Source: an uncultured Verrucomicrobiae bacterium (GTDB lineage Bacteria; Verrucomicrobiota; Verrucomicrobiia; Chthoniobacterales; UBA10450). Taken from it: a stretch of 64,000 nt of DNA. Below the pieces are notes generated by a model. The model was not told the origin of the DNA. It did no database searches and saw only the letters and a program-made list of their open reading frames with translations. This document shows positions 3,304 through 50,638 of the stretch, one piece after another. The stretch's first letter is position 1. Each line of letters begins with the position of its first letter. The DNA lies in NCBI GenBank assembly GCA_963756875.1, contig CAVWPA010000003.1, positions 1,312,001 to 1,376,000 of the forward strand, read 5' to 3'. Made by a program: the position numbers and the translations under genes.

Positions 3304-3711
3304 TCACCGTTTCAGCTTCGCTCGGAGCTGTCGTTCAATGTCGTCGTCGTCGTAGGTTCGCCGCACCGGAACGCGCAAAATCGGTAAGCTGGCGATCTCA
3401 AGTATTCGATCAACGTCGCGGTCTCGTGCTTGGCGATCTGGGCGTTGATGCGAGGAATCGTCAAGCTCGACAGCGATGATCGGGCAGAGTGCTGCGTCGC
3501 AGACCACAAAATCGACATGTTTTGAGCAGATCCGCCTGAAGTTTGCTTGCCGCAGGCGATGTCGTTCGTCGGCCTCGACTAAATCAGCCAGCCTCACTTT
3601 TGCGTGGACAGTGTGTGGGACTACAATGCGGCGAAGAACTCCGTAGAAGTATCTTTCGGCCCGCGATAAAAGGAATTTCCGGCGAAAAAATGGCTTCAGT
3701 GCAACGTCCAT
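3304..3711 (-). CDS. DUF2726 domain protein
   Basis: LLSRAE...AKVRLADLV...KHVDFVVCD...AVELDDSSH...RD pattern. Start trimmed to Met at 3711 to avoid overlap with the divergent gene. Confidence 0.85.
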   Translation of the reverse strand: MDVALKPFFRRKFLLSRAERYFYGVLRRIVVPHTVHAKVRLADLVEADERHRLRQANFRRICSKHVDFVVCDAALCPIIAVELDDSSHQRPDRQARDRDVDRILEIASLPILRVPVRRTYDDDDIERQLRAKLKR

Positions 3712-3815
3712 CCATGAAATTTCAGCAGTTGATATGCCGACCACAGCAATTGCGTGCCCGAACAGTGGGGACGAAACTTGCTCTTTAAAGCCTTTTCGAA
3801 GAAAGTCCTGAAACG

Positions 3816-4520
3816 ATGACGAACACAGAGACCCAAGACGTGAGAGAACTGCCTGCGTACGGAGTTGCGGAGGCAGCGCACTACCTTCTGGTCCCCCGCG
3901 CGACTTTGCGTTCGTGGCTCGCGGGAATGTCATACGGTACAGGCTCCGGACGAAAACTATTCAAACCCGTGATTCAGCCGGCTGCCAGGTCCCCGGTCGC
4001 ACTTTCGTTTGTTAATTTGATTGAGGCCCATGTCCTGGCCGCCATCCGGCGAAAATATCGAGTCGACATGCCGGCCGTTCGTAGATCCATCGACTTTTTG
4101 AAAAATAAGCTTGGCTCGGCGCATCCTCTCTCTGATCACAAATTCGAAACCAACGGTGTTGACCTGTTCATAGAACGTTACGGGCAGCTCATGTCTGTAT
4201 CGCAAGGTGGGCAGCTTGCAGTGAGAGAATTGCTGAAAGCACATCTGCGCAGAATCGAACGCGATGAGAAAGGATTTCCACTGCGGCTTTATCCATTTAC
4301 GCGCGTGGGTGACACCGATCAGCCGAGGAACATCGTCATCGATCCGTTTGTGTCATTTGGTCGTGCCGTCATTTCTGGAACGGGAGTGAGCACCGAGTTG
4401 GTTGCCGAACGCTTCAAGGCCGGCGAATCCGCGGACGAACTCGCCAGCGATTACGGCTGCGAACGGGAAAAGATTGAAGAAGCGATCCGTTGCGAACTCA
4501 GCCTCGCCGAAGCCGCCTGA
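3816..4520 (+). CDS. DUF433-containing antitoxin (VapB45-like)
   Basis: N-terminal HTH (YGVAEAAHYL..PRATLRSW) and C-terminal DUF433 (IVIDPFVSFGRAVISGTGV...ERFKAGESADELASDYG). Confidence 0.9.
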   Translation: MTNTETQDVRELPAYGVAEAAHYLLVPRATLRSWLAGMSYGTGSGRKLFKPVIQPAARSPVALSFVNLIEAHVLAAIRRKYRVDMPAVRRSIDFLKNKLGSAHPLSDHKFETNGVDLFIERYGQLMSVSQGGQLAVRELLKAHLRRIERDEKGFPLRLYPFTRVGDTDQPRNIVIDPFVSFGRAVISGTGVSTELVAERFKAGESADELASDYGCEREKIEEAIRCELSLAEAA

Positions 4521-4908
4521 AGAACTCACTTTCTTTCTCGATCGCCAACTTGGCCGTTACAAGATGGCTGGGGCGCTTCGGAATGCCGGTCTCAAGGTCG
4601 AGATACACGACGATCATTTTCCGCAGAACGCTCAAGACCCGGAGTGGTTGGCAGCGGCTGGGAAGAACAACTGGGTTGTAGTCACGAGGGATGAACGCAT
4701 TCGCTACCGTGTCGCCGAGAAACAAGCGATCCGCCGCGCCAAAGTCCGGGCATTCGTGATCGCTGCTCAAGGCGATTTGCGAGCAGAAATACTGGCAGAC
4801 ATTTTTCTCAAAGCGCTTCCCAAAATTCGGCGAACCGTGAAACAGCGGAAGCCGCCCTTCATCGCAAAGATTTCACGCGGCGGCGACGTCGTTGTCCTTG
4901 AATTCTAA
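4474..4908 (+). CDS. PIN-like toxin (VapC45-like)
   Basis: TFFLDRQLG...HDDHFPQNAQDPEWL...VVTRDERIRYR; overlaps the DUF433 gene. The TTG start at 4474 is uncertain. Confidence 0.85.
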   Translation: MKKRSVANSASPKPPEELTFFLDRQLGRYKMAGALRNAGLKVEIHDDHFPQNAQDPEWLAAAGKNNWVVVTRDERIRYRVAEKQAIRRAKVRAFVIAAQGDLRAEILADIFLKALPKIRRTVKQRKPPFIAKISRGGDVVVLEF

Positions 4909-5901: not shown

Positions 5902-9072
<3,171 letters not shown>

Positions 9073-9075
9073 GGA

Positions 9076-10189
9076 CTAGACTGGTTCTGAAAAGAGACTC
9101 GCTGAATCGCAGACGCATCCAACCGAGCATCACGAGGTGATGAATGGCGCTGGCGACCTCCAGCTGTTTCTCGTCCGTCCGCCACGCCTTTTTCCAGTCC
9201 AGAATGAAATCGTAGAGCTGCTGTTCGGCGACTTCCTCTCCTGGTCTTGCGCGCTTGAGCTCCCGGCTCGCGAAGAGAACTGTCAGGACTTCCTCGGCTT
9301 GATCCGTATTCTTGATTCGGCTGAAAAGGTCGACCGTTTTCGCGATCCGTTTCGCGTGCCGTTCGATCACCTCGGTGTATTTGAGCCGATCCTCTTCGTA
9401 TTGCGGGGCTGCGCGCAACGCGGTCATTTTGCCCAGCTGCTCTTCGCGCACCCAGTTCCGGTTCGCCAATTCATGAAGGGCGATTTTTACCTCATCCGCG
9501 AATGGTCCGTAGCTTCCTTTTTCAAAACGGAAACCGGTTTGAACTCCCGTCTCCGTGAGGACGTAGGCAATTTTTTGTAAAATGGTTCGCCCCACCGGAT
9601 TCGTGTACGGCTGCTGACCCAGTTCACGCACCACCTCCACCAGCGCCACCCATTCAGGATTAAGCTTCTCTGGCGACGGCCTTTGCCGCTCAGGCTCATC
9701 TGCGAATTCGCGCCGAGGAAGTCCAGAGTGAGTTCATTTTTTGGCGTGCCGTAGGGGGCATAAACCTCCACATCGAAGTCGGCGTCGCGCAGCTTCGAAT
9801 AAATAAGCGGCCCAACCTCCGACCAATCCAGTCCGCCGTTTCCGCAGCCGAGAGGTGGAAAGGCCACGCTTTGGACGCCCCACTCCTCAGCGTGCGCGAC
9901 GAAGTAATCCAGGCCCCGGTTCATATCCGCGAGCCGCGATGCGGATCGCCAGTGATCTTTGGTCGGAAAGTTCACGATCATCGCACCGCCTGGATCGCGG
10001 TAAAGATACGGTTCACCCAACCGCACTTGTTTGCGCATGCACCGCGCGGCGTAATCTTCGAACATCGTCGGGTAGGCCTTCTTAAACTCCAGCGCGACGC
10101 CTTTCCCCATCACGCCAACGCAGTTCACGGTATTGATCAGCGTTTGAGCTGGGCTGTCGGAAAATGTCTCCGATCAGAGGTTTGAACAT
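9076..10189 (-). CDS. darG: DarG antitoxin (macrodomain DNA ADP-ribosyl glycohydrolase), frameshifted
   Basis: GDIF..AQTLINTVNCVGVMGKGVALEFK, IVNFPTKDHWR, SVAFPPLGCGNGGLDW, and C-terminal LQKIAY...GSYGPF. Confidence 0.92.
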
Positions 10190-10201
10190 GCGAATGCGGG
10201 A

Positions 10202-10788
10202 TTAGTGAAAGAATAAGGCCGAATCGACCACAATGGATAGTCCAAAGCCGAGTGCTCGGAGACGTTCCTCCGAGGTTTTGTCTACGCGGTACGCCCCCAG
10301 AAGGTATTCGGGTCCCACCCGATGCGGCACGAGCACTTCGGCGCATTTATGCGCGCTGTGCCTCCATTCCGCGATTTGGTCGTCAGGATGCTTCCAATTC
10401 AAGGCAAAGATATCCTCAAACGCGAGCACCCGCCACTGCGATGGAGCGAGGAACCGAACATACTTGCTTGAAGCATTGGAGTCGGCCAGGACGACGCCAT
10501 CTAAATTGAGCACATCAATCGAGACACGCAGAACACAAAGTTCCGTGGCTTCTTTTCTTCGCTTGGAGAGCATCGGATTTCGCGCGTGAAAATAGAGATT
10601 CGCATATTGATGCAGTTTTAGGCCGCTCGGCACCTGCTTCGATCCCGCAAATCTTGGACTGCCTGTAACGCCACCGAGCGGTGCTCCAGGCGGGCCGCCT
10701 GTTCGTGGGAGAGAATGCCGTGCTTCAAGACCGATGAGACGTTCTCAAGCGGCATGATGCACTGAAATTCGGTTACGCGCGGGTCCAT
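10202..10788 (-). CDS. darT: DarT ssDNA ADP-ribosyltransferase toxin (DUF4433), frameshifted near 10640
   Basis: ENVSSVLKHGILS, LHQYANLYFHARNPML, ADSNAS, catalytic KCAEVLVP; directly upstream of darG. Confidence 0.92.
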
Positions 10789-10854
10789 CGGTAGGTCGTA
10801 GCTTAGCGAGAGAACTCTATTCCCGAGGAGTCAATCTTCTGCTTCGCATCCATG

Positions 10855-11633
10855 TCATGGATGCTTCTCTTCAGACCAAGCTTCTGACGACATTTTCGGC
10901 AAAAGAGTGGCGCATCGAGCCGGGAGAAATTCCTTTCAACTCGAAGGTTTCACCCGTGATTTCGTGCGTCATGCGCGAAGCAAAACCAGCAATGAAATTC
11001 AGGATTGATCGAAATTCTTGCTCGGTTACTTCCCGAGCAAGCACGCCGAAAAGCTCCACCGAGTCCGTCCTTTGGCTCTGCTCCGGGAAGCGTGTGAAGT
11101 CGTTTCGCCAAGTTCACCGACTCACCCAAGAGAGTCCACTCACTATAGCCTTTCCTTCAATGCGATCCACGAACTGTAGGCCGGACCAGAGGCCGATTCG
11201 GAACGGATAGTTTGGTCCCAAGGGTGCGCTGGAGATCGTGCAGACTCCCGAGCAAGAAGCTCATGTCAAAGATTCCGGGAACTCCGCCGTCTGCCTCCAT
11301 GTCCGGTACAACAAACATAACTTCGTCTCCGATGGTCTTATCAACGAGTGCGCCGGCGTCGACAGCCTTATCCGTGATGCCGACAAGGAATGGCTTCAGG
11401 TATTCGCTAATTTCCGATGGCGATGAACCTGCAACGCGCGTCGAGAAACCGATCAAGTCTACGAAACCGACGAAGCCCTTAATTTCCCGCTGGCCGAAGT
11501 AAGCATTGGCAAACGCCGCGCCGCTGTCGGTAAGTTCGAGAGCGCGAGTGGAGTAAGCCCGAGGGTGGCGGCCGAGTCGATGTAGACCGGCTCGATGTTC
11601 AAGCCATTCATCCGTCTTTCGTCCAGCAATCAT
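10855..11633 (-). CDS. stand-alone class III adenylate/guanylate cyclase-family protein (frameshifted)
   Basis: Rebuilt across frames: GFVDLIGFST, LVDKTIGDEVMF, FRIGL, EWTLLGESVNLAKRL, ELKG. All canonical class III cyclase motifs are present. The stop is either 10855 or 10871. Confidence 0.85.
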
Positions 11634-11723
11634 GCGGTCACCTGAATCATGTGCGTTCGAAACTCCACGAACCAGCTTGACGCTTCTTCAATTCTTGCAT
11701 CGTCCAACAAGGTCATGCTCAAG

Positions 11724-12623
11724 TTACCAACCGGCTTTCTTAGCTTCCGCGATCAGCGCCGCTGCACTGTAATTCATTTGGTTTTCGAAATCATTCCGTA
11801 ACCATCGGAAAATGCGGTCAAACACGAGCGGGCTCTTGCGGCGATTGTCGAAGACTTCGTCCTGAAGAAGCCGCGAGGTTGCCGTGACGTCGGCCTCCAC
11901 CTTCCCAACTAGTGCATCAGTCCACAGTTGCTGCGCATGATCTTTCAAAGCATCAAGGCGCTTTGCCGCCTCCAGTTGCTCGGTCAATTGCCTAACACCG
12001 AGGATCAGCAGCGGCGCCAAGGGGGCCACCACGCTGACAACAAATGTTCCAGGCTGAGTTGCCTTTGCAGCGCGACGCACAAAACAAGTCCGCAGATGAA
12101 AAGCACAAGCGATATGATGATAACGGCGTACCGGCGTCTCTGTTTTGCGTCCCACCAGCAATTCGAGCGTTGACACACGATGCGCCCGAGATGGAGCGGC
12201 AGCTGTGAGACCGAAGGGGCATACCAGTCGCGGAGAGTTGGCATCTCAGCCCGGAAGGGCGTATCGCCCTGATTTGTTCCTTTATCAGTTCCGGGTCCGG
12301 TCTGTGGCCAGCCTTGACTGAATTCCATGGGAGCTGAAGCACGTCACAGTCGAACTCCTCTTGGACTCGCGCCGCTCGTTCCCTGAGCAACTTCTGCCAT
12401 GGGGTCAGCCAGAGCACGTCGCACAGTGCGACGCCGATTCCGAAAAGAGCGGAGTAACCTTTTAGGTTTGGCCAGATCAAGCCAATCACGGCGGAAACGA
12501 CAGCGCCAGGGCCGCTCAGTATGATCAAGGGGTACTAAAGACACGCTTCGCTGGACCGGACAGCTGCCGTTGAGCGGCCAGTCGCTCGAGCTGTAGTGGC
12601 GAATTCTGTTCCGCAGCGATCAT
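11724..12623 (-). CDS. SMODS-associating 4TM (S_4TM) CBASS membrane effector, frameshifted
   Basis: MIAAEQNS..QLERLAAQRQL, AARVQEEFDCDVLQLPWN, LRDWY, CQRSNCWWD, SRLLQDEVFDNRR..PLVFD; four hydrophobic segments; starts 2 bp after the nucleotidyltransferase stop. Confidence 0.88.
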
Positions 12624-12625
12624 AC

Positions 12626-13497
12626 CTAGTAGGAGTAGGTCGGAAATTCGTAGTTATATAAAAGTCGCCACCAGTCGAACGCTTCGGAGATTTTCCCCTT
12701 GGCAGATTCATCACGAGCGTTTTGCGCGCGGGTGTATGCGGTTTCCAGCTTCGAGAGGGCGTCTGTCCGTGCGGCATCACTCTTGCAGGGTGCGATGTAT
12801 CCAGAAACTCCCATGGGATCCTGCAAGCTCGGTAGTTGACCATCCCAAAGTAACTTCAGAACGTTTCTGACATCATACTCATACATGATCGTAGTTTCTC
12901 CAGACGCATACTTCGCTACTCGAATCTCCAAATAGAATGACGAGATCGGAACAGCGCGGAAGTATTTCCAGGCTTTTAGATATCGAATGAGGGGCTTGAC
13001 CCTTTTGGCTAATTTGTCATCGACGGACCGCACGTACGCATTGTGCGCGTCCGGACTCGCTTTCATCCAACCGCCTGAACAGTCTGCGATATCGTAGACC
13101 TTGAAGCCGTTGGTCTCTCCAGTGCAATCTGCCGGCACGATCTCTGTTATTTCCGACTTCCTGGTGCCGAAAGGAACAGCAACCGCTGGACAGTTGACCG
13201 CCACACCAGTGTCGGAAACCGCGTATCCAGCGCGTTGCGAACCTTGACCAATGATGAGGTAGAAACCTGCGTCAGTTGATCGGTAGGAAGAGAGGCCAAG
13301 TAGTCGACATCGCTATATCTCGATATGCTTGTCCAGTTACCAAAAGAGCCGATACGAGCGAACCGCTTCAACCCGAAATTATTCTTGAGGCATGCCTCGA
13401 TTGACGCGCGGTGGCTTTTAGCGGCATCGGACTCGCCCGTTTGGGGTTTCAGCTTCGACAGGAAATCGTCAAAGCCTTCTTCGATAGTTCGCGGCAT
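12626..13497 (-). CDS. cGAS/DncV-like nucleotidyltransferase (SMODS, CBASS cyclase), one frameshift near 13205
   Basis: GSFGNxTSISRYSDVDY (GS...DxD), EIVPAD, WMKASPDAH, VKPLIRYLKAWKY, ISSFYLE, LQDPMG. Confidence 0.9.
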
Positions 13498-13499
13498 AT

Positions 13500-14758
13500 C
13501 TATTGCCTCATTGACTTCTGTTCTGTACTCTTCCCGCTCAGCAGCTTCGGCAGCAGCGTGTCGCGCAGGGTGTCAGAGTGCGGGCTTCTCTTCATTGTTC
13601 CGAATCTGAAAACCAACGGCTTGCAAACCGGCCAAACGCGTCGTAATTCGCCGGCGGTACGGGACGACTGACTTGAATCACAGAAGTCGTGCCAATGCCC
13701 TTCGTATTCGGAGAACGACGAACGGCCCATCGGTTGCATAGTAGAGCCCAAAAGGTATCAAGGCCCGAAACCGACGAACGGCAGGACTTCTGACTCGCGG
13801 AAAAAGAATATCGTGATCAGCCGCATGTAGCGGTGTGATTTGCAAAAACCGCGACTAGGCCTTTTGGGTCGCTGATCACGTCCCGGCTCGTTGCTGTGAA
13901 ACGCTCATTATGAAGCCGATCGCCTTGGTCCAGAGACTGATATTTTCGCACCGGGGATAGGTCTCTGTTAGTGCTTTTGCCCGACGAAAGGGCTTGATGA
14001 ACTCCCCAATTTTCATCACTTTCCAGCCTTTCGGAATGTGACCAAGCTCTGAATTTTCGAACTCGTTAGGGAAGAGAGCGGCGGTGGCGGGGTCGAGGCC
14101 GGCGGGTTGGCGGCCGTCGAGTTTGGCGCGGACGGGGTCGAAATCCACGAACCAGCTCTGGAACAGCGCCCGCGCCATCGCCTCCAGCGTCGCGTTCATC
14201 CGCCGGTTCAACTCGATCTTGTCGTCCAGCGCCCCAAGCACCGCCGCGATGGCTTTTTGCTCGGCGAGGGGTGGGACGGGATTGAAACTCGATAGATGTC
14301 GTCGCGACGTAAGTGCTTCCTGACTGTCGCGTACCGCGGCAGTGCCACCAATGAAGGCTGATCGTGCGCAGTGATTCAGAAAAGTAGCAGAAGCGCTGGT
14401 CTGGCTCGCCCCTTGCAGCTAACGGACTGCTTGATTAAGCAAACGCGTTGCCTTCGCAACGCAACACGGTACTGCCGACGTCCGATCAGCCGAGTTAATC
14501 AGCGTTCAGCGAGAACGCCAACAGTCGCGATGAAACAGCATCACCTCTCGTGAGTTGTAGCTTCAGCTACTTCGGCGAACCTTCGTAATCGAAGTCGTCC
14601 ACTCGTCGCGCGCATGCCATCGCCGATACTTGAACGTTCACGCATCAACGAAGGCATCGCGGCTCGGACCGATAGTGATCGCTCTTGAAGAGGCAAACCC
14701 TTTCCATGTGGCGCAACGCCTTCACAGCGAGTTCAACGTCTGTCCATTCACTCGCCAT
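13500..14758 (-). CDS. hsdS: type I restriction-modification specificity subunit; conserved blocks readable, both TRDs garbled
   Basis: Start MASEW overlaps the hsdM stop; central [48 protein letters not shown]...IPKGW; end [13 protein letters not shown]. Confidence 0.85.
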
Positions 14759-16358
14759 AACCCAACCCCCTCAGGTTTGCTTTGATGGCCTGCTCCAGTT
14801 TCGCGGACTCGGCGAACTGGGCGTGCAGTTCGGCGACGAGGCGCGGCATCTTTTCCTCGAAGGGGTCGCCGTCGTCTTCGACTTCCTCGGCGCCGACGTA
14901 GCGGCCAGGCGTCAACACATAGCCATGCGACGCGATTTCGTCAGTCGTGGCTGACTTACAGAAACCGGCGACATCTTGTATGTCGCCGGAGTTCGTTATC
15001 GGTCCTGTGTTACGGTGGTCGCCTCTCCATGCGTGATAGGTGTTCACGATCTTCGCGTGATCGGCTTCGGTGAGTTCGCGGTGGACTCGGTCGATGAGCG
15101 TTCCCATTTTGCGCGCATCGATGAAGAGGGTTTCGCCTTTGCGGTTGCGACGTTTCAAAGCAGACGGCCGGAACTCGCCCCGCCGGTTTTGTTTTTCGCC
15201 AAAAACCAAAGGCAGACGGGAATCTGCGTGCTGTAGAAGAGCTGGCCGGGGAGGGCGACCATGCAGTCGACGAGGTCGGCCTCGATGAGGGCTTGCCTGA
15301 TTGTCCCTTCGCCGGACTGGTTGGAGGACATGCTGCCATTGGCGAGGACGAAGCCGGCCATGCCGTGGGGCGCGAGGTGGTGGATGAAGTGCTGCACCCA
15401 GGCGAAGTTGGCGTTGCCCCGGGGCGGGACGCCATACTGCCAGCGCACGTCGTCGTCTTTGCGGAACCAGTCGGAGTCGTTGAAGGGCGGGTTGGCGAGG
15501 ACGTAGTCGGCGCGGAGGTCGGGATGGAGGTCGCGCCGGAAGGTGTCGGCGTGCTCGGGGCCGAAGTCGGCCTCGATGCCGCGCAGGGCGAGGTTCATGA
15601 CGGCGAGGCGGCGGGTGGTGGGGTTGCTCTCCTGGCCGTAGATGCTGATGTCGCCGAGCTTGCCGCCGTGGGCTTCGACGAATTTCTCCGATTGCACGAA
15701 CATGCCGCCGGAGCCGCAGCAGGGATCGTAGATGCGGCCTTTGTAGGGGGCGAGCATCTCGACGAGGAGGCGGACGACGCTCTGCGGGGTGTAGAACTGG
15801 CCGCCTTTCTTGCCTTCGGCGCTGGCGAATTGGCCGAGGAAGTATTCGTAGACGCGGCCGCAGGACGTCTTTCGAGCGGCGGCCTTGTCGCCCAGGCCGA
15901 TCGTGCCGATGAGGTCGATGAGTTCGCCTAAGCCGATGTTTATCGAGCGCGGGCCGGGCGTATTCTTTCGGGAGGACGCCTTTGAGGCGCGGGTTGTCGC
16001 GCTCGATCGCGACCATCGCGTCATCGACGATCTTGCCGATCTCGGGCTGCTTGGCGCTGTTCTGGAGATAGGTCCAACGCGCGCCAGGCGGAACCCAGAA
16101 GACGTTGACGGCTTTGTATTCGTCCTGGTCTTCGGGATCGGCACCAGCGTAATCGCCTTTGCCTTCTTTCAACTTTGCGTGGTGCTCTTCAAAAGCGTCG
16201 GAGATGTACTTCAGGAAGATGAGGCCGAGGACGACGTGCTTGTATTCGGCCGCGTCCATGTTGCTGCGCAGCTTGTCGGCGGCGAGCCAGAGCTTGGCTT
16301 CGAATCCGATATTGGCGGAATTGTTGTTCGACGAGGCTTTGGATTTCCCGCGCGCCAT
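14748..16358 (-). CDS. hsdM: type I restriction-modification methyltransferase subunit (frameshifts near 15930 and 15190)
   Basis: [50 protein letters not shown]. Confidence 0.95.
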
Positions 16359-16426
16359 TTGAAAGGCGAAACCTAACAGAAGCGTTGTTCTCTGTAGAGC
16401 GGAAAAAGCGTCCGCCAGGCGGACGC

Positions 16427-16900
16427 GGTTATCGGTTAATCGTTAACGGTTATCGGGGGAAGCAAGAAAGCCAAGGGGCAAGAGGTAAGGGGGAAGAGCG
16501 AAAAGGGCATGGAGCAGGGAGCGCGGAGTGCAGATTTTTCACAGAAGGAAACGAAGGCAGCGAAGGAGGGGGAAACGGCGAAGCGGTAAGGGCTCGCCAC
16601 GGCGAGTAAACTGCGGGCGAGGAAGGACGACAAGACCGCGGACTACGGGACAACGAGGACGCGGAAAAGCCGAAAACGAAAGAAACGTCGAACCCTCCTT
16701 CGCCATGCTCCGGCGGGCAGGCTGCCCAACGTCCAATGTCGGAAATGCAGAGGATGAGGTCATTTGGGAAGTGGCGAGTGACCCACCGCGGCGGGTTCGT
16801 CTAAGCGAACATGTGGCGAGTGACGAGAAGGAACGAAGGCTGCAATCTTCGAGGACGATCAGCGAGCGAGTTTCAAATTAAGAATTAGAAATTAGGGAGC
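16427..16900 (+). repeat. modular intergenic repeat array (heptamer tandems plus hairpin modules)
   Basis: GGTTA(T/A)C tandems, GGGGCAAGAGGTAAGGG, CTCGCCACGGCGAGTAAACTGCG and AACG(T/C)C(G/C) tandems; the same modules recur through the window. Confidence 0.8.
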
Positions 16901-16920
16901 AGATGCGTTATTCTTGTGCT

Positions 16921-17124
16921 ATGAGCGCGACGGAAATCATCGAGCAGTTCAAGGCTCTTCCCGCCACTGAGCGGGCCCAAGTGGCCAAGTTCGTTGTGGA
17001 AAACGATGATTCCTGGATTCCGGATTCCTTTAAGCAAGGTATGGCCGATGCCGCTGCCGGTCAGTTTGTGGATATGAAAACCGCGCTCAGCGGAGCAAAA
17101 CCGCCGTCTCGAGCGGCGGAATGA
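16921..17124 (+). CDS. small antitoxin-like protein
   Basis: MSATEIIEQFKALPATERAQVAKFV; its stop overlaps the next start (ATGA). Confidence 0.75.
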   Translation: MSATEIIEQFKALPATERAQVAKFVVENDDSWIPDSFKQGMADAAAGQFVDMKTALSGAKPPSRAAE

Positions 17125-17390
17125 AATACTTTGCTACCCAGCGATTCTGGGAAAGCTTCTACGCCCTTTCATCAAGCCAGAAGGAGTCTACGCGTCGAGC
17201 TTGGGCAATCTTCAAGGAGAATCCTTTCGATCCACGACTGCGAACTCACAAGATTCACAGGCTTTCGGCCCGGTTCAATCGCACGATTTACGCGGCCGAG
17301 ATTGAAGCTGACTTGCGAGCGGTATTTTACATCGAAGCCGATGTCGTGGTGACGGTGGATATCGGCTCGCACGATATTTATCGCGGGTAA
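17121..17390 (+). CDS. RelE/ParE-superfamily toxin
   Basis: MKYFATQRFWESFYAL...FKENPFDPRLRTHKI...DLRAVF...VDIGSHDIY. Confidence 0.85.
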   Translation: MKYFATQRFWESFYALSSSQKESTRRAWAIFKENPFDPRLRTHKIHRLSARFNRTIYAAEIEADLRAVFYIEADVVVTVDIGSHDIYRG

Positions 17391-17447: not shown

Positions 17448-17963
17448 GGGTTAATTGTTATCGGTTCTCGGTTATTGGGGGGAGCAACAAAGCCAAGGGG
17501 CAAGAGGTAAGGGCGAAGGGCGGAGCGCGGCGAAGCAAACGTCGAACGCCGAACTCTCAAAGCAGAAATGGAAAATGGCAACCGGAGCGGTTGCCCTACA
17601 ATTCAGATGTCCCGCCGCGGCGGGTAAACTGCGGGGAAAGGGCGAAGGTCATCCGCCTACGCCAAGGCTTCGGCGTGATTCGTCCCGCTTCGCGGGCGAA
17701 AAAGAGGTGAGGGTTAGCGCAAGGCGCCGTTGAGGAGGGTAAGGGGCTTGGCTCCCCGAGCCAAGTCGCCGGCTTCCCTAGGTCGCGGTTGCGACCTCCC
17801 GCCGTAGAGTTCGCGCCCTGCGAACCGTAGAGGTCGGAGGACGGAATTTGTTCGGAGGGAGAACAAAACAACGAAGGGCGACCGCCTACGCCAAGGCTTC
17901 GGCGTGATTCGTCCCGCTTCGCGGGCGAAAAAGAGGGTGAGGGTCAGCGCAACGCGCCGTTGA
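17448..17963 (+). repeat. modular repeat array containing an ~81-bp direct duplication (17653-17733 and 17882-17963)
   Basis: CCGCCTACGCCAAGGCTTCGGCGTGATTCGTCCCGCTTCGCGGGCGAAAAAGAG...AGCGCAA.GCGCCGTTGA appears twice. Confidence 0.85.
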
Positions 17964-19968
17964 TGGAAGTGATCAATTTTTCCCAGCTGGTGCGTTCGGT
18001 GTCGGACAGGTTGGCGGCGGTGTGGTCTCGGGTCCAGCGCACGAATGCTTTGGCCAGGCGGTATCGGGAAAAATCGCCGATCTGGGTTTTGAAAATATTG
18101 ACCACGGATCTGCCGGGCTCGGCGTTGGAAGCGGCTGCGACGTCCCAGTTCAGCTCGGTCCGGGCGACGTGGACCAGGGTGTCGCGCAGCAGATCTTCAA
18201 CTGCCGGGCGTTCGAGCGGGCCGTCGTAAACATCTTTGGTCCGGAGAACGGATTTGTTGCCGAGCGCTTGCACGAGGCGTTCCTGGTGCGCGGCCTGGTC
18301 GGGAAACATTTCCGAATCCAATAGTGCTGCGACTTTGAGTTTGGATGCGTGCAAAACCGTGGCGTAATAAACCACCTTGCCGGCGCCGCTCGCGGGCAGA
18401 AGCGAGATCTTGTCACTGAGATCGGCAATGCCGGCATCGCGCAACAGTTGGGCGACCGCGTCGAGGTACCAGTAATCGGTCAGGCTCTCAAGAACGAGAT
18501 TGCGCTGCTGCGCGAACAGACTCTGGGCAAGATCGTACCCGAGCGATTCTCGTAACGGCAAAAGCGCAACCGGGTCTTCGGCGGCAATGCCGGTGTGGAC
18601 CTTGGTGCCAACGGTGCGGTCGGTCATTTCCACGACCCGAACCAGATTCAACTCGTCCGGCCCGACCAGAAACGGCGAGTGCGTGGTATACATGGTCTGA
18701 TTAGATTCGGCCAGGCGGGAAATGGTGTTGCGGAATTCGCGTTGCTTGAGCGCGTGCAAACTCAGGCCTGGTTCGTCGAGCAGCAGGATGGCGTTTTTGT
18801 GATTCTTCGCGGCCTCGGCGAAAAAGACGATGAAGAACGAGACCAGCCACTGAAAACCTTCCGAACGCTGGTCGAGCTCGATCTCAACCCCGACGTCATC
18901 CTCGACAATCATTTTGAGATACTGACCATCGCACACGATGCGCAAGCGCTCAGCTTCATCGCGTTTCGAATCGGGCATCCAGGTGGCGCGCAACTCGTCG
19001 GTCAGCCGGACACTGGCGGCGTTCAGTTGGTAGGAGCGACGATCGAGTTGATCGCGATAAGCCTGGAGCGCGGCCGGATCACCCATCGGCGGTTCCTCGC
19101 CCTTGCCGAGATCGGAAAGCTCGCGGGCGCTGAACCCGAGCAATTTCAAAAGACATTTGTTTCCGTAATCGTAGTAATCGTCGTCGATCAGGTTGCGTTC
19201 GATGCGTGTGGCGAGATGATCGAGATGAATCAGCGGACGAACACGGAAGAAATCGCGGAACCGAATGAACAAGGGTAAACGCCGGCCCAGGGTCCAGAGC
19301 ACGTTTGAGCGCTGGTCGTTCGCCTCAATGGTCTTGACCAGGTCGTCGTAGCGTTTTTCTTCGACTTCGTTTTTTTCTTCGACGTGCGGGAAGGCCTTTT
19401 CGATTGCCGCCTTCAAAATCCGCGCGGGCTCGCCAGCGAGCTCGTAATCGTCTTTCCAATCGTGGGCCAGGGCAACGATCGGGGTGCTGGGAGGATCGGC
19501 CGGCGACATGTCCGGTGCCGGCGCCGGCACATGGCTGTCGATGTGCGCGCAAAAACGGGCCAGATCCTTTTTGATGTCGCCGAATTTCTTTGCCGGTGGC
19601 GCGCCGAGAAAATCGTGCCAGAACGAATTATCCAGTTTCCGACCGAACACGTAATCGTATTGGCGATATTCAGCCGGAATTGTCTCCTTGTCCTCGTCGG
19701 TCAGGCCGAAGTGCGCTTCGACCACTGTGACCTGGCTGGGCAGGATTTTTCCAGAATTGATATCGTCGTATTCCGAGCGCGGATAATCGCGCAGCGGATC
19801 GAAGGCGCGAATGCCAACCGGAGGATTGATTCGCTGGATCGCTTCCAGGAGAGCGGTCTTCCCGGCCTCGTTAGGCCCGATCAAAATAGTTTTGCCTTTC
19901 TCGAGATCGAACCATCCGCTGTCGCGAATGGAACGATATTTTGTGACCCGAACCCTTTTTAGAAGCAT
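17944..19968 (-). CDS. OLD-family-like ABC ATPase with a C-terminal TOPRIM-like domain
   Basis: RVTKYRSIRDS, Walker A GPNEAGKT, signature QRSEGFQW, Walker B LLLDEPGLSLH, TTHSPF, then LVLESLTD and ALLDSE. Start trimmed to Met 19968. Confidence 0.88.
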   Translation of the reverse strand: MLLKRVRVTKYRSIRDSGWFDLEKGKTILIGPNEAGKTALLEAIQRINPPVGIRAFDPLRDYPRSEYDDINSGKILPSQVTVVEAHFGLTDEDKETIPAEYRQYDYVFGRKLDNSFWHDFLGAPPAKKFGDIKKDLARFCAHIDSHVPAPAPDMSPADPPSTPIVALAHDWKDDYELAGEPARILKAAIEKAFPHVEEKNEVEEKRYDDLVKTIEANDQRSNVLWTLGRRLPLFIRFRDFFRVRPLIHLDHLATRIERNLIDDDYYDYGNKCLLKLLGFSARELSDLGKGEEPPMGDPAALQAYRDQLDRRSYQLNAASVRLTDELRATWMPDSKRDEAERLRIVCDGQYLKMIVEDDVGVEIELDQRSEGFQWLVSFFIVFFAEAAKNHKNAILLLDEPGLSLHALKQREFRNTISRLAESNQTMYTTHSPFLVGPDELNLVRVVEMTDRTVGTKVHTGIAAEDPVALLPLRESLGYDLAQSLFAQQRNLVLESLTDYWYLDAVAQLLRDAGIADLSDKISLLPASGAGKVVYYATVLHASKLKVAALLDSEMFPDQAAHQERLVQALGNKSVLRTKDVYDGPLERPAVEDLLRDTLVHVARTELNWDVAAASNAEPGRSVVNIFKTQIGDFSRYRLAKAFVRWTRDHTAANLSDTERTSWEKLITSINGALR

Positions 19969-20304
19969 CCTGAACCGAGAATATGTTTTTGTCGGTTTAA
20001 AGGAAAGATTTCTTTGGGCCTGTGAATAAGTCTGATGTGAATAGTTTGTGAATAACAAACTGAGGACGGAGGTCGACGAGCCGTCCGTTAGCAAAGGGGG
20101 AAGAGGTAAGGGGTAAGGGGGAAGAGCTTTGCGCGGCATGATTCGGACGAACCGGTCTTTGAGGTCACAAATTGTGACCAGTTCCGGATGCGGGAGATTT
20201 AGCGCCATAGGCGCCGGTAAGCGCGAAGAGGCAAGGGCGAAGCGTCCGCATGGCGGAGGCGGAATTGCTTGCTAAAGTACGCGGTTTAAAGGTACAACCA
20301 TCCC

Positions 20305-48481: not shown

Positions 48482-49330
48482 GTGACTGCGCGCGTTACCA
48501 AGCGGACGAGCCGTGTCCGGCACTATAAACAAAAGAAAATCGAAGGATACGTTGCTGCCTGTGATGCTCTGGAGTTCTTGAAACTCATTGACAAAGAGAG
48601 TGCGGATATTGTATTCCTTGACCCTCCATTCAACCTCGGAAAGCGGTACCACGCTCGAAGACAAACAGATGTAATGCCTCTTCGAATATATGAAGGCTGG
48701 TTGAAGGAGATTCTTTTTGAATCCGTGAGGATTCTGCGACCCGGAGGAGCGCTGTATCTGTATCATCTACCGGTCTGGGCGATACGGCTTGGTGAATTTC
48801 TTGATGGCCATCTTGAATTTAGACATTGGATTGCGATTGCCATGAAAAACGGTTTCATCCGCGGGAAAAGTCTATATCCCGCACATTACGGGCTTTTGAT
48901 GTTCACCAAAGGCGAACCGGCGCGATCAGGCCGACCTAAATTGCGACCGTCCAAATGCCGTCATTGTGGGGAATATATCAAGGATTACGGCGGCTATTTG
49001 CCAATAATTGAGAGGAAGGGTATCAATCTCAGCGACTTTTGGGACGACTTGAGTCCCGTTCGCCACGCAAACCGCAAACACAGGCGAGCAAACGAGCTAC
49101 CTGAAATATTGTTTGAGCGCATCATTGCGATCAGTGGCTACCGTGGCGGGTTGGACGTCGACCCTTTTGCTGGTACTGGTTCCGGCGTAATTGCCGCCGT
49201 TCACAAAGGCCTTAGGTTCGCTGCCTGTGACTTGGTGCGCGCTAACTGCAACATCATATCACGTCGGCTCGACACGCTAATGGCTCAACTCTCAAGAAAG
49301 AAAAAAAATGCCAGAACAAGCCAACGCCTT
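48482..49330 (+). CDS. N6-adenine/N4-cytosine DNA methyltransferase (beta class); 3' end uncertain
   Basis: VFLDPPFN precedes DPFAGTGS; a CRHC knuckle lies in the variable region. Confidence 0.9.
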
Positions 49331-50638
49331 TCCGAGGAAACATTTTTCCTAGAAATGTTCACGCGCGACATTTCTCTAGAAGACTGCATTTTGGACCTGA
49401 TCGACAATTCGATAGACGCCTTGGTTAAAGCGCGCCAAGTAGATATTTCTTCTGCCGTTTTTCAAAAGAATGGCTCCAAGCCAGATGCTAGCTCATTGCC
49501 TTCGGTGCATGTCAATTTCTCACCGACTGAGGTCAGAGTCGCCGATAATTGCGGCGGTATCACTTTCGAGGAAGCCAGAACGAGGTCTTTAATTTCGGTC
49601 ACGGCACTGAGCCTGTGCGTGGTCAGCTGGGCGCGTATGGAATTGGCCTCAAACGTGCCCTCTTCAAAATCGGGAATGATTTCCTGATCAGAATCGCGCG
49701 CGGAAAAGGATGGATTCTCGGCTCATTTGCCAGACGTTCGCAAATAGGCCTCTTCTGACACAACTCTGGATGATTGGAAGATTCTGATAAAGCCGCTCCA
49801 GCGAGCAAAGTCACCCAAGCAGGCGGGGACGGAGATAACAATCCGCGGTTTGCGTGACGAGGTCAAAATGCGCATTGCTGACGGTACCCTCGGCGGTCGA
49901 CTGCGGGAACTAATCGAGAAAACCTATGCGTTGTTCTTGGATCGTTACGTTCGGGTCTACCTGAACAATAAAATAGTAGAGCCGTTCGAGATTCCGCTAG
50001 GACAATCGAGGGATGTAACGCCTGGGCATGATGATTTTGAAGATGGCGGAGTAAAGGTGAAGTTATTTGCAAGCCTTTCGTTGCAGCCGCGAGCGGAAAC
50101 CGCCGGATGGTACGTCCTTTGTAACGGGCGAGTCGTTGTCCATGCCGATAAGACTGAGTTAACAGGATGGGGAGCTGCGTTACCTCAATTTCATACCAAA
50201 TTTGTCCGGTTTCTTGGCTTGGCGTTTTTCCAATCCAAAGATCTGCTGCTGCTGCCTTGGACGACGACAAAACGCGGATTAAATCGGGAATCCCGGATAT
50301 TTCAAAAGGCTAGGAATCGCATGGCGGGCTTATCGCAACCTATATTGAAGTTTCTAAGTAGCATGTATCGAACCGAGCTTAGTGAAGAGCCAAAGGAGCG
50401 GCGCGTTGCCGATACTATCAAGCCAACGGACATACGAAGAGTTGCCTCGCAACCGAGCTCCGTATTCAAAGTCGCGATGCCCGCCGTGTCTTGGCAGCCG
50501 AGAACGGTAAGAATTCTATATGACGCGCAGAGGAGGGATATTGAGAGAGTAAAGAAGCAACTTCGAAAGCCATCAATGCCTGCGAATAGAATCGGAAAAA
50601 TAATAGATCACTTCTTGAAAACCGAATGCTCCGAATAG
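49308..50638 (+). CDS. GHKL/MORC-like ATPase (HATPase_c_3 type), several frameshifts
   Basis: MPEQANAFPRKHFFLEMFTRDISLEDCILDLIDNSIDA, VADNCGGI, GAYGIGLKRALFKIG, AGWYVLCNGRVV..ADK, LPWTTTKRG. Confidence 0.88.

Follow-up and report, generated by a model that had tools for sequence, protein, structure and literature searches.

Does a nucleotide cyclase gene that sits between two anti-phage systems belong to either of them, or is it a module in its own right? The question is raised by a 64,000-nucleotide stretch of DNA from an uncultured Verrucomicrobiae bacterium (contig CAVWPA010000003.1, positions 1,312,001 to 1,376,000; hereafter the window), in which a minimal class III, IIIb-like cyclase gene of about 259 codons lies on the minus strand at 10855..11633, between a two-gene cyclic-oligonucleotide-based anti-phage signalling system (CBASS) and the toxin-antitoxin (TA) pair DarTG. 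An earlier note on this DNA had proposed a hybrid in which the cyclase supplies CBASS or DarTG with a second nucleotide signal, and had kept an independent single-gene insertion as a fallback. Our analysis favours the fallback and adds that the recurrent host of the insertion is a restriction-modification (RM) operon: the gene is likely an independent, RM-embedded minimal cyclase that is linked to defence.

One Type I RM operon (16358-5905, minus strand), which the earlier note had missed, carries the CBASS pair, the cyclase and DarTG as cargo between its hsdS and hsdR genes. The first gene of the operon is the methylase gene hsdM (14748..16358), which was recognized by reading translations rather than by a family scan; its N-terminal, catalytic and C-terminal parts alternate between the open reading frames (ORFs) 14748..16358 and 15155..16144, so that it occupies two frames with two frame changes. 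The specificity subunit gene hsdS follows at about 13500..14400 as fragments (13876..14241 and 13500..13751), and the hsdS of a homologous locus, L010, matches the window at 14277-14143 in a tblastn search (82% over 45 residues). The last gene, hsdR (5905..9075), was located by tblastn searches in which residues about 3-1063 of the intact HsdR proteins from L010 and L014 map to 9075-5905 in pieces across all three frames, with at least five frame changes. Since hsdM and hsdS lie upstream and hsdR lies downstream, the genes between them are all nested in a single RM operon. At 64–67%, hsdR and hsdM are richer in GC than the nested cargo (53–56%) and the genome as a whole (57%).

Within the cargo, the gene order described by the earlier note holds on the minus strand: CD-NTase, S_4TM effector and, after 90 bp, the cyclase, whose end at 10855 is the coordinate from which that note started. 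The CD-NTase gene (12626..13497), whose start abuts the hsdS stop, is read in two frames with one frameshift near 13147-13204 and matches PADLOC model PDLC00776 (E 2.2e-32 for the N-terminal piece and 6.7e-80 for the C-terminal piece) and Pfam SMODS (E 1.8e-8). The S_4TM gene (11724..12528), with at least two frameshifts or frames, matches PF18159 (E 3.8e-22 over profile positions 34-123 and 6e-24 over 180-290, positions 124-179 being absent from both pieces) and the PADLOC 4TM model PDLC00721 (E 8e-25 and 1e-32). From its stop at 11724 the 90 bp lead to the cyclase ATG at 11633; the cyclase TGA is at 10857-10855, and DarT begins 66 bp further on, on the same strand. DarT, a single-stranded DNA ADP-ribosyltransferase toxin (10202..10788), was identified with PF14487 (E 1.3e-18 and 0.0028) and the PADLOC DarT model (E 6e-18), and its macrodomain antitoxin DarG (8972..10128) with the PADLOC DarG model (E 1.1e-58 and 1.5e-20) and Pfam Macro (E 4e-16); each of the two genes carries one frameshift. 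A scan of 8800-16600 gave one promoter-like site where 2.3 were expected, and none of the gaps between genes held a convincing terminator on the minus strand; around the CBASS pair and the cyclase only short, chance-like repeats and no att-like pair were found.

The hybrid reading holds that a second cyclic-nucleotide input from the cyclase gates or modulates S_4TM or DarTG, so that 13497-8972 would form one system. The short same-strand spacers on either side of the cyclase, free of a convincing terminator, are in its favour, as is a precedent for inhibitory or decoy signalling by sensor-less synthases, reported for the miniature Cas10 system (PMC12657230). If the genes formed one system, they should be found together elsewhere, and in the loci and genomes compared here they are not. 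We collected 80 loci of the cyclase family, 17 from species-representative genomes (L009-L025) and 63 from metagenome contigs (L049-L111), and scanned with Pfam (E <= 1e-4 to 1e-5) the neighbouring ORFs of at least 70–80 codons within 3.6–4.2 kb, 144 in the genomes and 212 in the metagenomes. SMODS, S_4TM, DarT, Macro, cNMP_binding and TIR domains occurred near the cyclase in none of the 80 loci, and when the CBASS and DarTG pieces of the window itself served as tblastn queries, nothing matched in 113 loci (L009-L121, 799 kb). Conversely, among 400 other genomes from the phylum, 9 have the CD-NTase clade of the window, and none of these nine carries the cyclase.

A short-read contig from sequencing run X2 points the same way: it joins position 11633, the cyclase ATG, to position 13533, which lies 11 codons short of the stop of hsdS, and lacks the CBASS pair. 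This is the arrangement of L010, in which hsdS is followed directly by the cyclase. The joint comes from a single contig of depth 3.9, at a likeness threshold of 85% and with 32 other letters between the two ends; weak evidence on its own, it is consistent with everything else. Two-gene CBASS and DarTG are, moreover, each complete known systems. We therefore regard the hybrid as very improbable, and conclude that the cyclase is probably a component of neither neighbour, their adjacency reflecting co-embedding. On balance, the cyclase would be one of three separate cargo modules in the Type I RM operon, the other two being the two-gene CBASS and DarTG.

Where else is this cyclase found? With its 158-residue N-terminal piece as the query, 57 proteins were retrieved at E <= 1e-3, mostly of 247–269 residues and without a further domain. 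Among the 400 other genomes of the phylum there was no family member at E <= 1e-20, the two matches found being domains of proteins of more than 700 residues. The 40 relatives of the source genome, a tally that takes in the unpublished genomes G002, G007 and G014 (all other results being independent of them), contained no orthologue; all that matched in them were larger cyclases, with open frames of about 290–1040 residues, mostly around 700, and these matched weakly (E 1e-3 to 3e-6) and in the catalytic core. No relative was found on viral contigs. The family consists of rare, horizontally spread, stand-alone class III enzymes of about 250–260 residues.

RM or Hma genes of several types, in several phyla, lie in or against 21 of the 80 family loci: 8 of the 17 genome loci, within 4.2 kb (L010, L011, L013, L014, L021, L022, L023 and L024), and 13 of the 63 metagenome loci (L049, L051, L057, L059, L063, L064, L066, L076, L077, L084, L088, L097 and L098). 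Counting only loci of at least 3 kb, the figure is 17 of 43. By contrast, no RM or defence neighbour was seen in any of 23 control loci of distant cyclases from the same scan (L026-L048). Thus the link to defence loci that the earlier note had expected is present, to RM and Hma genes; its specific form, a link to SMODS, S_4TM or darTG, is not. As in the window, where the order is hsdS, cyclase and hsdR with the other cargo, the cyclase is nested inside a multi-gene defence operon in five further loci. It lies between hsdS and hsdR in L010 and L059, where it is followed by PDC-M03A and PDC-M03B, and in L063, where it is followed by GmrSD; in L023 the order is HmaA, cyclase, HmaB, HmaC, and in L024 the cyclase stands between HmaA, at some remove, and HmaB. 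Elsewhere it follows hsdS (L057), precedes hsdR (L088), follows hsdR (L014 and L051) or a Type IIG/ISP enzyme (L021 and L049), or adjoins a fusion of a methyltransferase (MTase) with Mrr (L013, L064 and L076/L077). Since the cyclase start overlaps the stop of the upstream RM gene in L010, L011, L023 and L049, the cyclase would be co-transcribed with the RM genes. Further defence-type neighbours of the family are AbiJ/Abi_C, dCTP deaminase, PDC-S05, PDC-M66A and TA pairs.

The association is not confined to one lineage of the family. In a rapidly built maximum-likelihood tree with 54 members (66 rows, from which 10 with a stop in the matched stretch and 2 identical ones were dropped; 14 partial loci were excluded), RM-adjacent rows are scattered, with at least six changes on well-supported branches and clustering no higher than for shuffled labels. 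We lean towards the view that the recurrent home of the family is the inside or the edge of methylation-based defence operons, be they Type I, Type IIG/ISP, fusions of an MTase with a restriction endonuclease, or Hma.

Some family members have other companions. HipA-like kinase candidates lie 3' of the cyclase in three loci, namely PDC-M03A with the HIRAN protein PDC-M03B (L010:8001-10493 and L059:101-2677) and PDC-M66A (L009:1484-3737), and the cyclases of these loci are 62–69% identical to the query; the cyclase and the HipA-like block may be a conserved three-gene unit or may just share operon ancestry. In one subclade a pentapeptide-repeat protein adjoins the cyclase (L012:2015-2854, L069:755-1882 and L093:1421-2902); that of L069 is fused to Ion_trans_2, the sole hint of a possible membrane effector. 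Longer cyclase forms occur at L016:7566-8744 and L022:7908-9068: one, an ORF of 392 residues, has an N-terminal GNAT match and stands ahead of a dCTP deaminase defence gene, whereas the other, of 386 residues, shares its locus with a GajB-like helicase, a Type III methylase and a HEC-01A-like ATPase. At L014:4253-8014, directly upstream of the cyclase, is a Type I hsdR with a fused C-terminal Peptidase_S24 (LexA-like) domain.

The active-site residues hint at what the enzyme may make. In class III cyclases two aspartates bind metal, an Asn/Arg pair stabilizes the transition state and a further pair of residues specifies the base, Lys/Thr being the ATP-type pair. The motifs quoted in the earlier note are all present in the window's cyclase, in which FVDLIGFS, DKTIGDEV and EWTLLGESVNLAKR are legible. 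An alignment of 25 relatives has 25 invariant columns, including the metal aspartates D58 and D102 as well as K98, R144 and R177. In the family profile, K98, T166, N173 and R177 share columns with their counterparts in the adenylate cyclases CyaB and CyaC: K98 (DKTIGDE) and T166 (EWT) align to DKFVGD and D(Y/F)T, and N173 (VNLA), which is present in the window's reading together with D58, D102 and R177, to the VN(L/I)A column. Judged by these residues, the family carries the Lys and Thr that define class IIIb (ATP-type) enzymes, in agreement with the signature that the earlier note had read, and CyaB and CyaC, with which the columns are shared, are also its best sequence and fold matches. The product is most likely a cyclic mononucleotide (cNMP), with cyclic AMP (cAMP) favoured because of the Lys/Thr pair at the base-specifying positions.

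The enzyme appears to be a bare catalytic domain. As the earlier note had stated for a protein of about 260 residues, no sensor, transmembrane (TM) or effector domain is evident: the Kyte-Doolittle mean over 19 residues peaks at no more than 1.08 in four homologues, with no TM segment, and the AlphaFold model of the best intact relative, P0002 (which shares 89% identity with the window's copy by BLASTP), has a single cyclase homology domain with an N-terminal extension of about 48 residues and no further domain, at a mean pLDDT of 89.7. Among solved proteins the best profile matches are CyaB (3r5g, E 1.2e-14) and CyaC (1wc0, E 3.4e-12), both of them class IIIb adenylate cyclases, and Foldseek placed CyaC, CyaB and Cya2 at the top (E about 1e-11, probability 1.00); none of the 45 profile matches, and none of the Foldseek matches listed, is a chain named uridylate or cytidylate cyclase. 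In modelled fold as in sequence, the cyclase resembles CyaB and CyaC. It is also predicted to form a head-to-tail homodimer with the active sites at the interface, which takes in residues 96-101, 166, 172-173 and 176-177. The ipSAE of the predicted dimer is 0.58 compared with 0.13 for the best control, at least 74% of the contacts are common to the runs, and the partner pLDDT is at least 75; of 30 solved homomers 20 attain the mark set for this test, as does 1 of 23 single chains. Since dimers of class III cyclases have already been solved, this prediction speaks for likeness only and may reflect the memory of the model.

Every gene of the RM operon is frame-broken, and the breaks are confined to 5.9–16.4 kb. 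The split of the cyclase into pieces, seen already in the earlier note, resolves in a frameshift-aware alignment to the intact, 264-residue P0002 into four single-site frame changes, near 11222, 11152, 11051 and 10924, and the operon with its cargo is dense in frameshifts of a single base. One explanation is that the cyclase copy and the whole operon are true pseudogenes in a decayed island, whatever the function of the cyclase. The confinement of the breaks (at least four in the cyclase, at least five in hsdR, two in hsdM and at least one in each of the others) fits this, since genes of 501–841 residues are intact outside the region and the source genome holds 113 stop-free frames of at least 800 residues: the damage is therefore local, and a uniform rate of sequencing error fails as an explanation because these 113 frames stay open genome-wide. 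By long-ORF cover the island falls among the lowest 4% of 11-kb windows, although spurious open frames in the hsd genes, with their 64–67% GC, make this measure less sharp.

The details of the breaks argue against decay. In the alignment to P0002, 235 of 255 aligned residues of the cyclase are identical (92%), no in-frame stop is found and all catalytic residues are kept, and all four frame-change sites fall within homopolymers of 2–4 nucleotides. The window was also compared with Logan contigs, built from the short reads of four soil runs whose word shares are small (0.07–0.14), and no single contig spans the island. Around the frame breaks of the window, some contigs that are 97–100% identical to it depart from it by single gaps; over the CD-NTase, a 161-nucleotide contig (13152-13311) has no mismatch and one gap and a 787-nucleotide contig (12742-13517) has 21 mismatches and one gap, and among the indels listed the window base at 7062 is missing from 11 contigs in run X1 and 9 in run X2. 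Local consensus errors are thus quite probably the cause of the frame breaks, and decay of the island is a distinctly less probable one. Whichever holds for the window, intact members of the cyclase family are present elsewhere.

How might such a cyclase work? It may act as a stand-alone embedded gene for defence or for the control of defence. A PrrC-like logic would most likely apply, in which the restriction complex keeps the co-encoded cyclase silent or the cyclase reports on the state of the complex. Receptors with genes elsewhere could read its nucleotide output (the source genome has nine cNMP-binding domain matches, none within the window), or the effect could come about through consumption of nucleoside triphosphates (NTPs). 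Tentatively, we suggest that bare class IIIb cyclases are an unlisted anti-phage module of RM and Hma operons that couples restriction to cyclic-mononucleotide signalling. If this is true, the cyclase might be a PrrC-like guard that fires once the restriction complex has been disabled by a phage; general receptors would then read cAMP or another cNMP, or NTPs would be drained, with no need for a dedicated effector gene.

Several points weigh against the view of an independent, defence-linked RM cargo gene. No conserved effector or receptor was found next to the cyclase in the 80 loci, and its output step is for that reason a guess. Fifty-nine of the 80 loci have no RM gene, many of them on contigs shorter than 3 kb, and the counts are inflated by the near-duplicates L076/L077, L097/L098, L082/L084 and L009/L050. 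One clade of the tree, with 18 rows, includes a single RM-adjacent member. The 23 control loci of distant cyclases were scanned under slightly stricter settings (ORFs of at least 100 codons, E <= 1e-8) than the family loci (70–80 codons, E <= 1e-4 to 1e-5). The Pfam cyclase model PF00211 gave nothing at E <= 0.01 on the window's pieces; among homologues, those of L021 (33.9 bits), L018 (24.1) and L023 (22.9) pass its cut-off of 21.9 bits, and most others gave nothing at E <= 1e-4. The window's copy, frameshifted like the whole operon, may be dead. Finally, the neighbours are housekeeping genes at some of the long loci (L017, L071, L080, L092 and L094, and L061/L062 after sufS). These last fit another explanation, that the gene is a small regulatory cAMP cyclase or a selfish hitch-hiker and RM operons are just permissive insertion hot spots; the want of an effector agrees with it, as do cNMP receptors, which are general regulators and for which the source genome has nine matches. 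Against it stand the overlaps between the cyclase start and the RM gene stop in several operons and the company that the cyclase keeps, since what else fills these slots is almost without exception a defence gene (PDC-M03, PDC-S05, GmrSD, Abi, dCTP deaminase, DarTG and CBASS). According to the preprint that surveyed such operons (bioRxiv 10.1101/2024.01.29.577857), most embedded genes are neither housekeeping nor mobilome. We consider a non-defence role unlikely.

A kinship with Pycsar may also be considered, in which the gene would be an orphan or degenerate PycC-type pyrimidine cyclase that has lost its cNMP-binding effector or has it encoded elsewhere. When two family proteins and the cyclase copies of 17 loci were scanned, PycC models were the only defence models matched, if weakly: PDLC00734 at E 1e-6 to 2e-12, and, for the cyclases of L020 and L021, PDLC02367 and PDLC02368; the scan covered those 74 of the 144 Pfam-scanned genome-locus ORFs that lie nearest the cyclase. 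These matches may signify a relationship with Pycsar, a point against the reading that we prefer, and the size of the enzyme and its missing sensor recall short forms of PycC. The matches are limited to the catalytic core (profile positions 190-320 of 374), though, and none of the 80 loci has a cNMP-binding, TIR or PycTM-like neighbour; in the window's operon, too, no PF00027, TIR or comparable gene was found, which bears out the absence of PycTM and PycTIR effectors stated in the earlier note. The nearest solved relatives are adenylate cyclases, and the Lys/Thr pair is of the ATP type. An orphan Pycsar thus seems improbable, and an independent RM-embedded cyclase remains the reading that we prefer. 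The window locus would be a novel arrangement of known kinds, with the cyclase as a candidate for an embedded defence gene; neither PADLOC-DB v2.0.0, whose HEC and PDC models do not match it, nor NCBIfam, which gave no match for four family members, contains the family.

Beyond the operon, a DUF2726 gene and a TA-like pair, HTH_66/DUF433 with PIN_10, lie on one side of it at 3307-4905. Upstream of hsdM are a small intact two-gene pair without a family match (16903-17390) and, at the island edge, an intact AAA_15/AAA_21 ATPase of 754 residues (17947-20208, minus strand) with a weak NCBIfam match to the retron effector PtuA. With defence-type genes on both flanks, the defence island therefore spans about 3.3–20.2 kb; past 21 kb housekeeping genes follow, and an N6_N4 DNA methylase gene lies far from the island at 48482-49684 (plus strand). 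That three consecutive sets of defence genes in a Type I RM operon would be co-embedded cargo and not a single system bears on how such islands are annotated.

How does the cyclase compare with known systems? It is like CyaB of Pseudomonas aeruginosa and CyaC of Spirulina in fold, metal aspartates, Lys/Thr and Asn/Arg pairs and predicted head-to-tail homodimer, while the family is only about 20% identical to them. Moreover, CyaB and CyaC have regulatory or membrane modules, whereas the family consists of the bare catalytic domain with a conserved N-terminal extension of about 48 residues (W10, H13, R14 and G16) and is encoded in restriction operons rather than in housekeeping loci. With PycC it has in common the class III cyclase fold and an anti-phage setting; unlike PycC, it has ATP-type specificity residues and is closer to solved adenylate cyclases, and the adjacent cNMP-binding TM or TIR effector of Pycsar is missing from its loci.

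In its genetic setting the cyclase is closest to the genes that Type I RM operons are known to gather, PrrC being the classic example of such nested defence genes (bioRxiv 10.1101/2024.01.29.577857). With PrrC, HEC-01 to HEC-09 and the PDC candidates it shares a genomic habit: its place is inside the operon, with hsdS and hsdR or HmaA and HmaB on either side, and often with other embedded systems for company; the difference is that it matches none of the HEC and PDC models. The word "cyclase" occurs zero times in the main text of that preprint, and the literature searches made for this analysis turned up no description of a class III cyclase within RM operons. The window's CBASS, with its 4TM effector, and its DarTG are ordinary members of their systems, and the cyclase does not co-occur with either of them in the family's other loci. 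To our knowledge, the known nucleotide-signalling defences (CBASS, Pycsar, Thoeris and type III CRISPR) all couple a synthase to a dedicated effector. Compared to these, a lone cyclase that recurs in restriction operons would be either a signalling arm wired to restriction or a defence that works through the general cAMP machinery of the cell.

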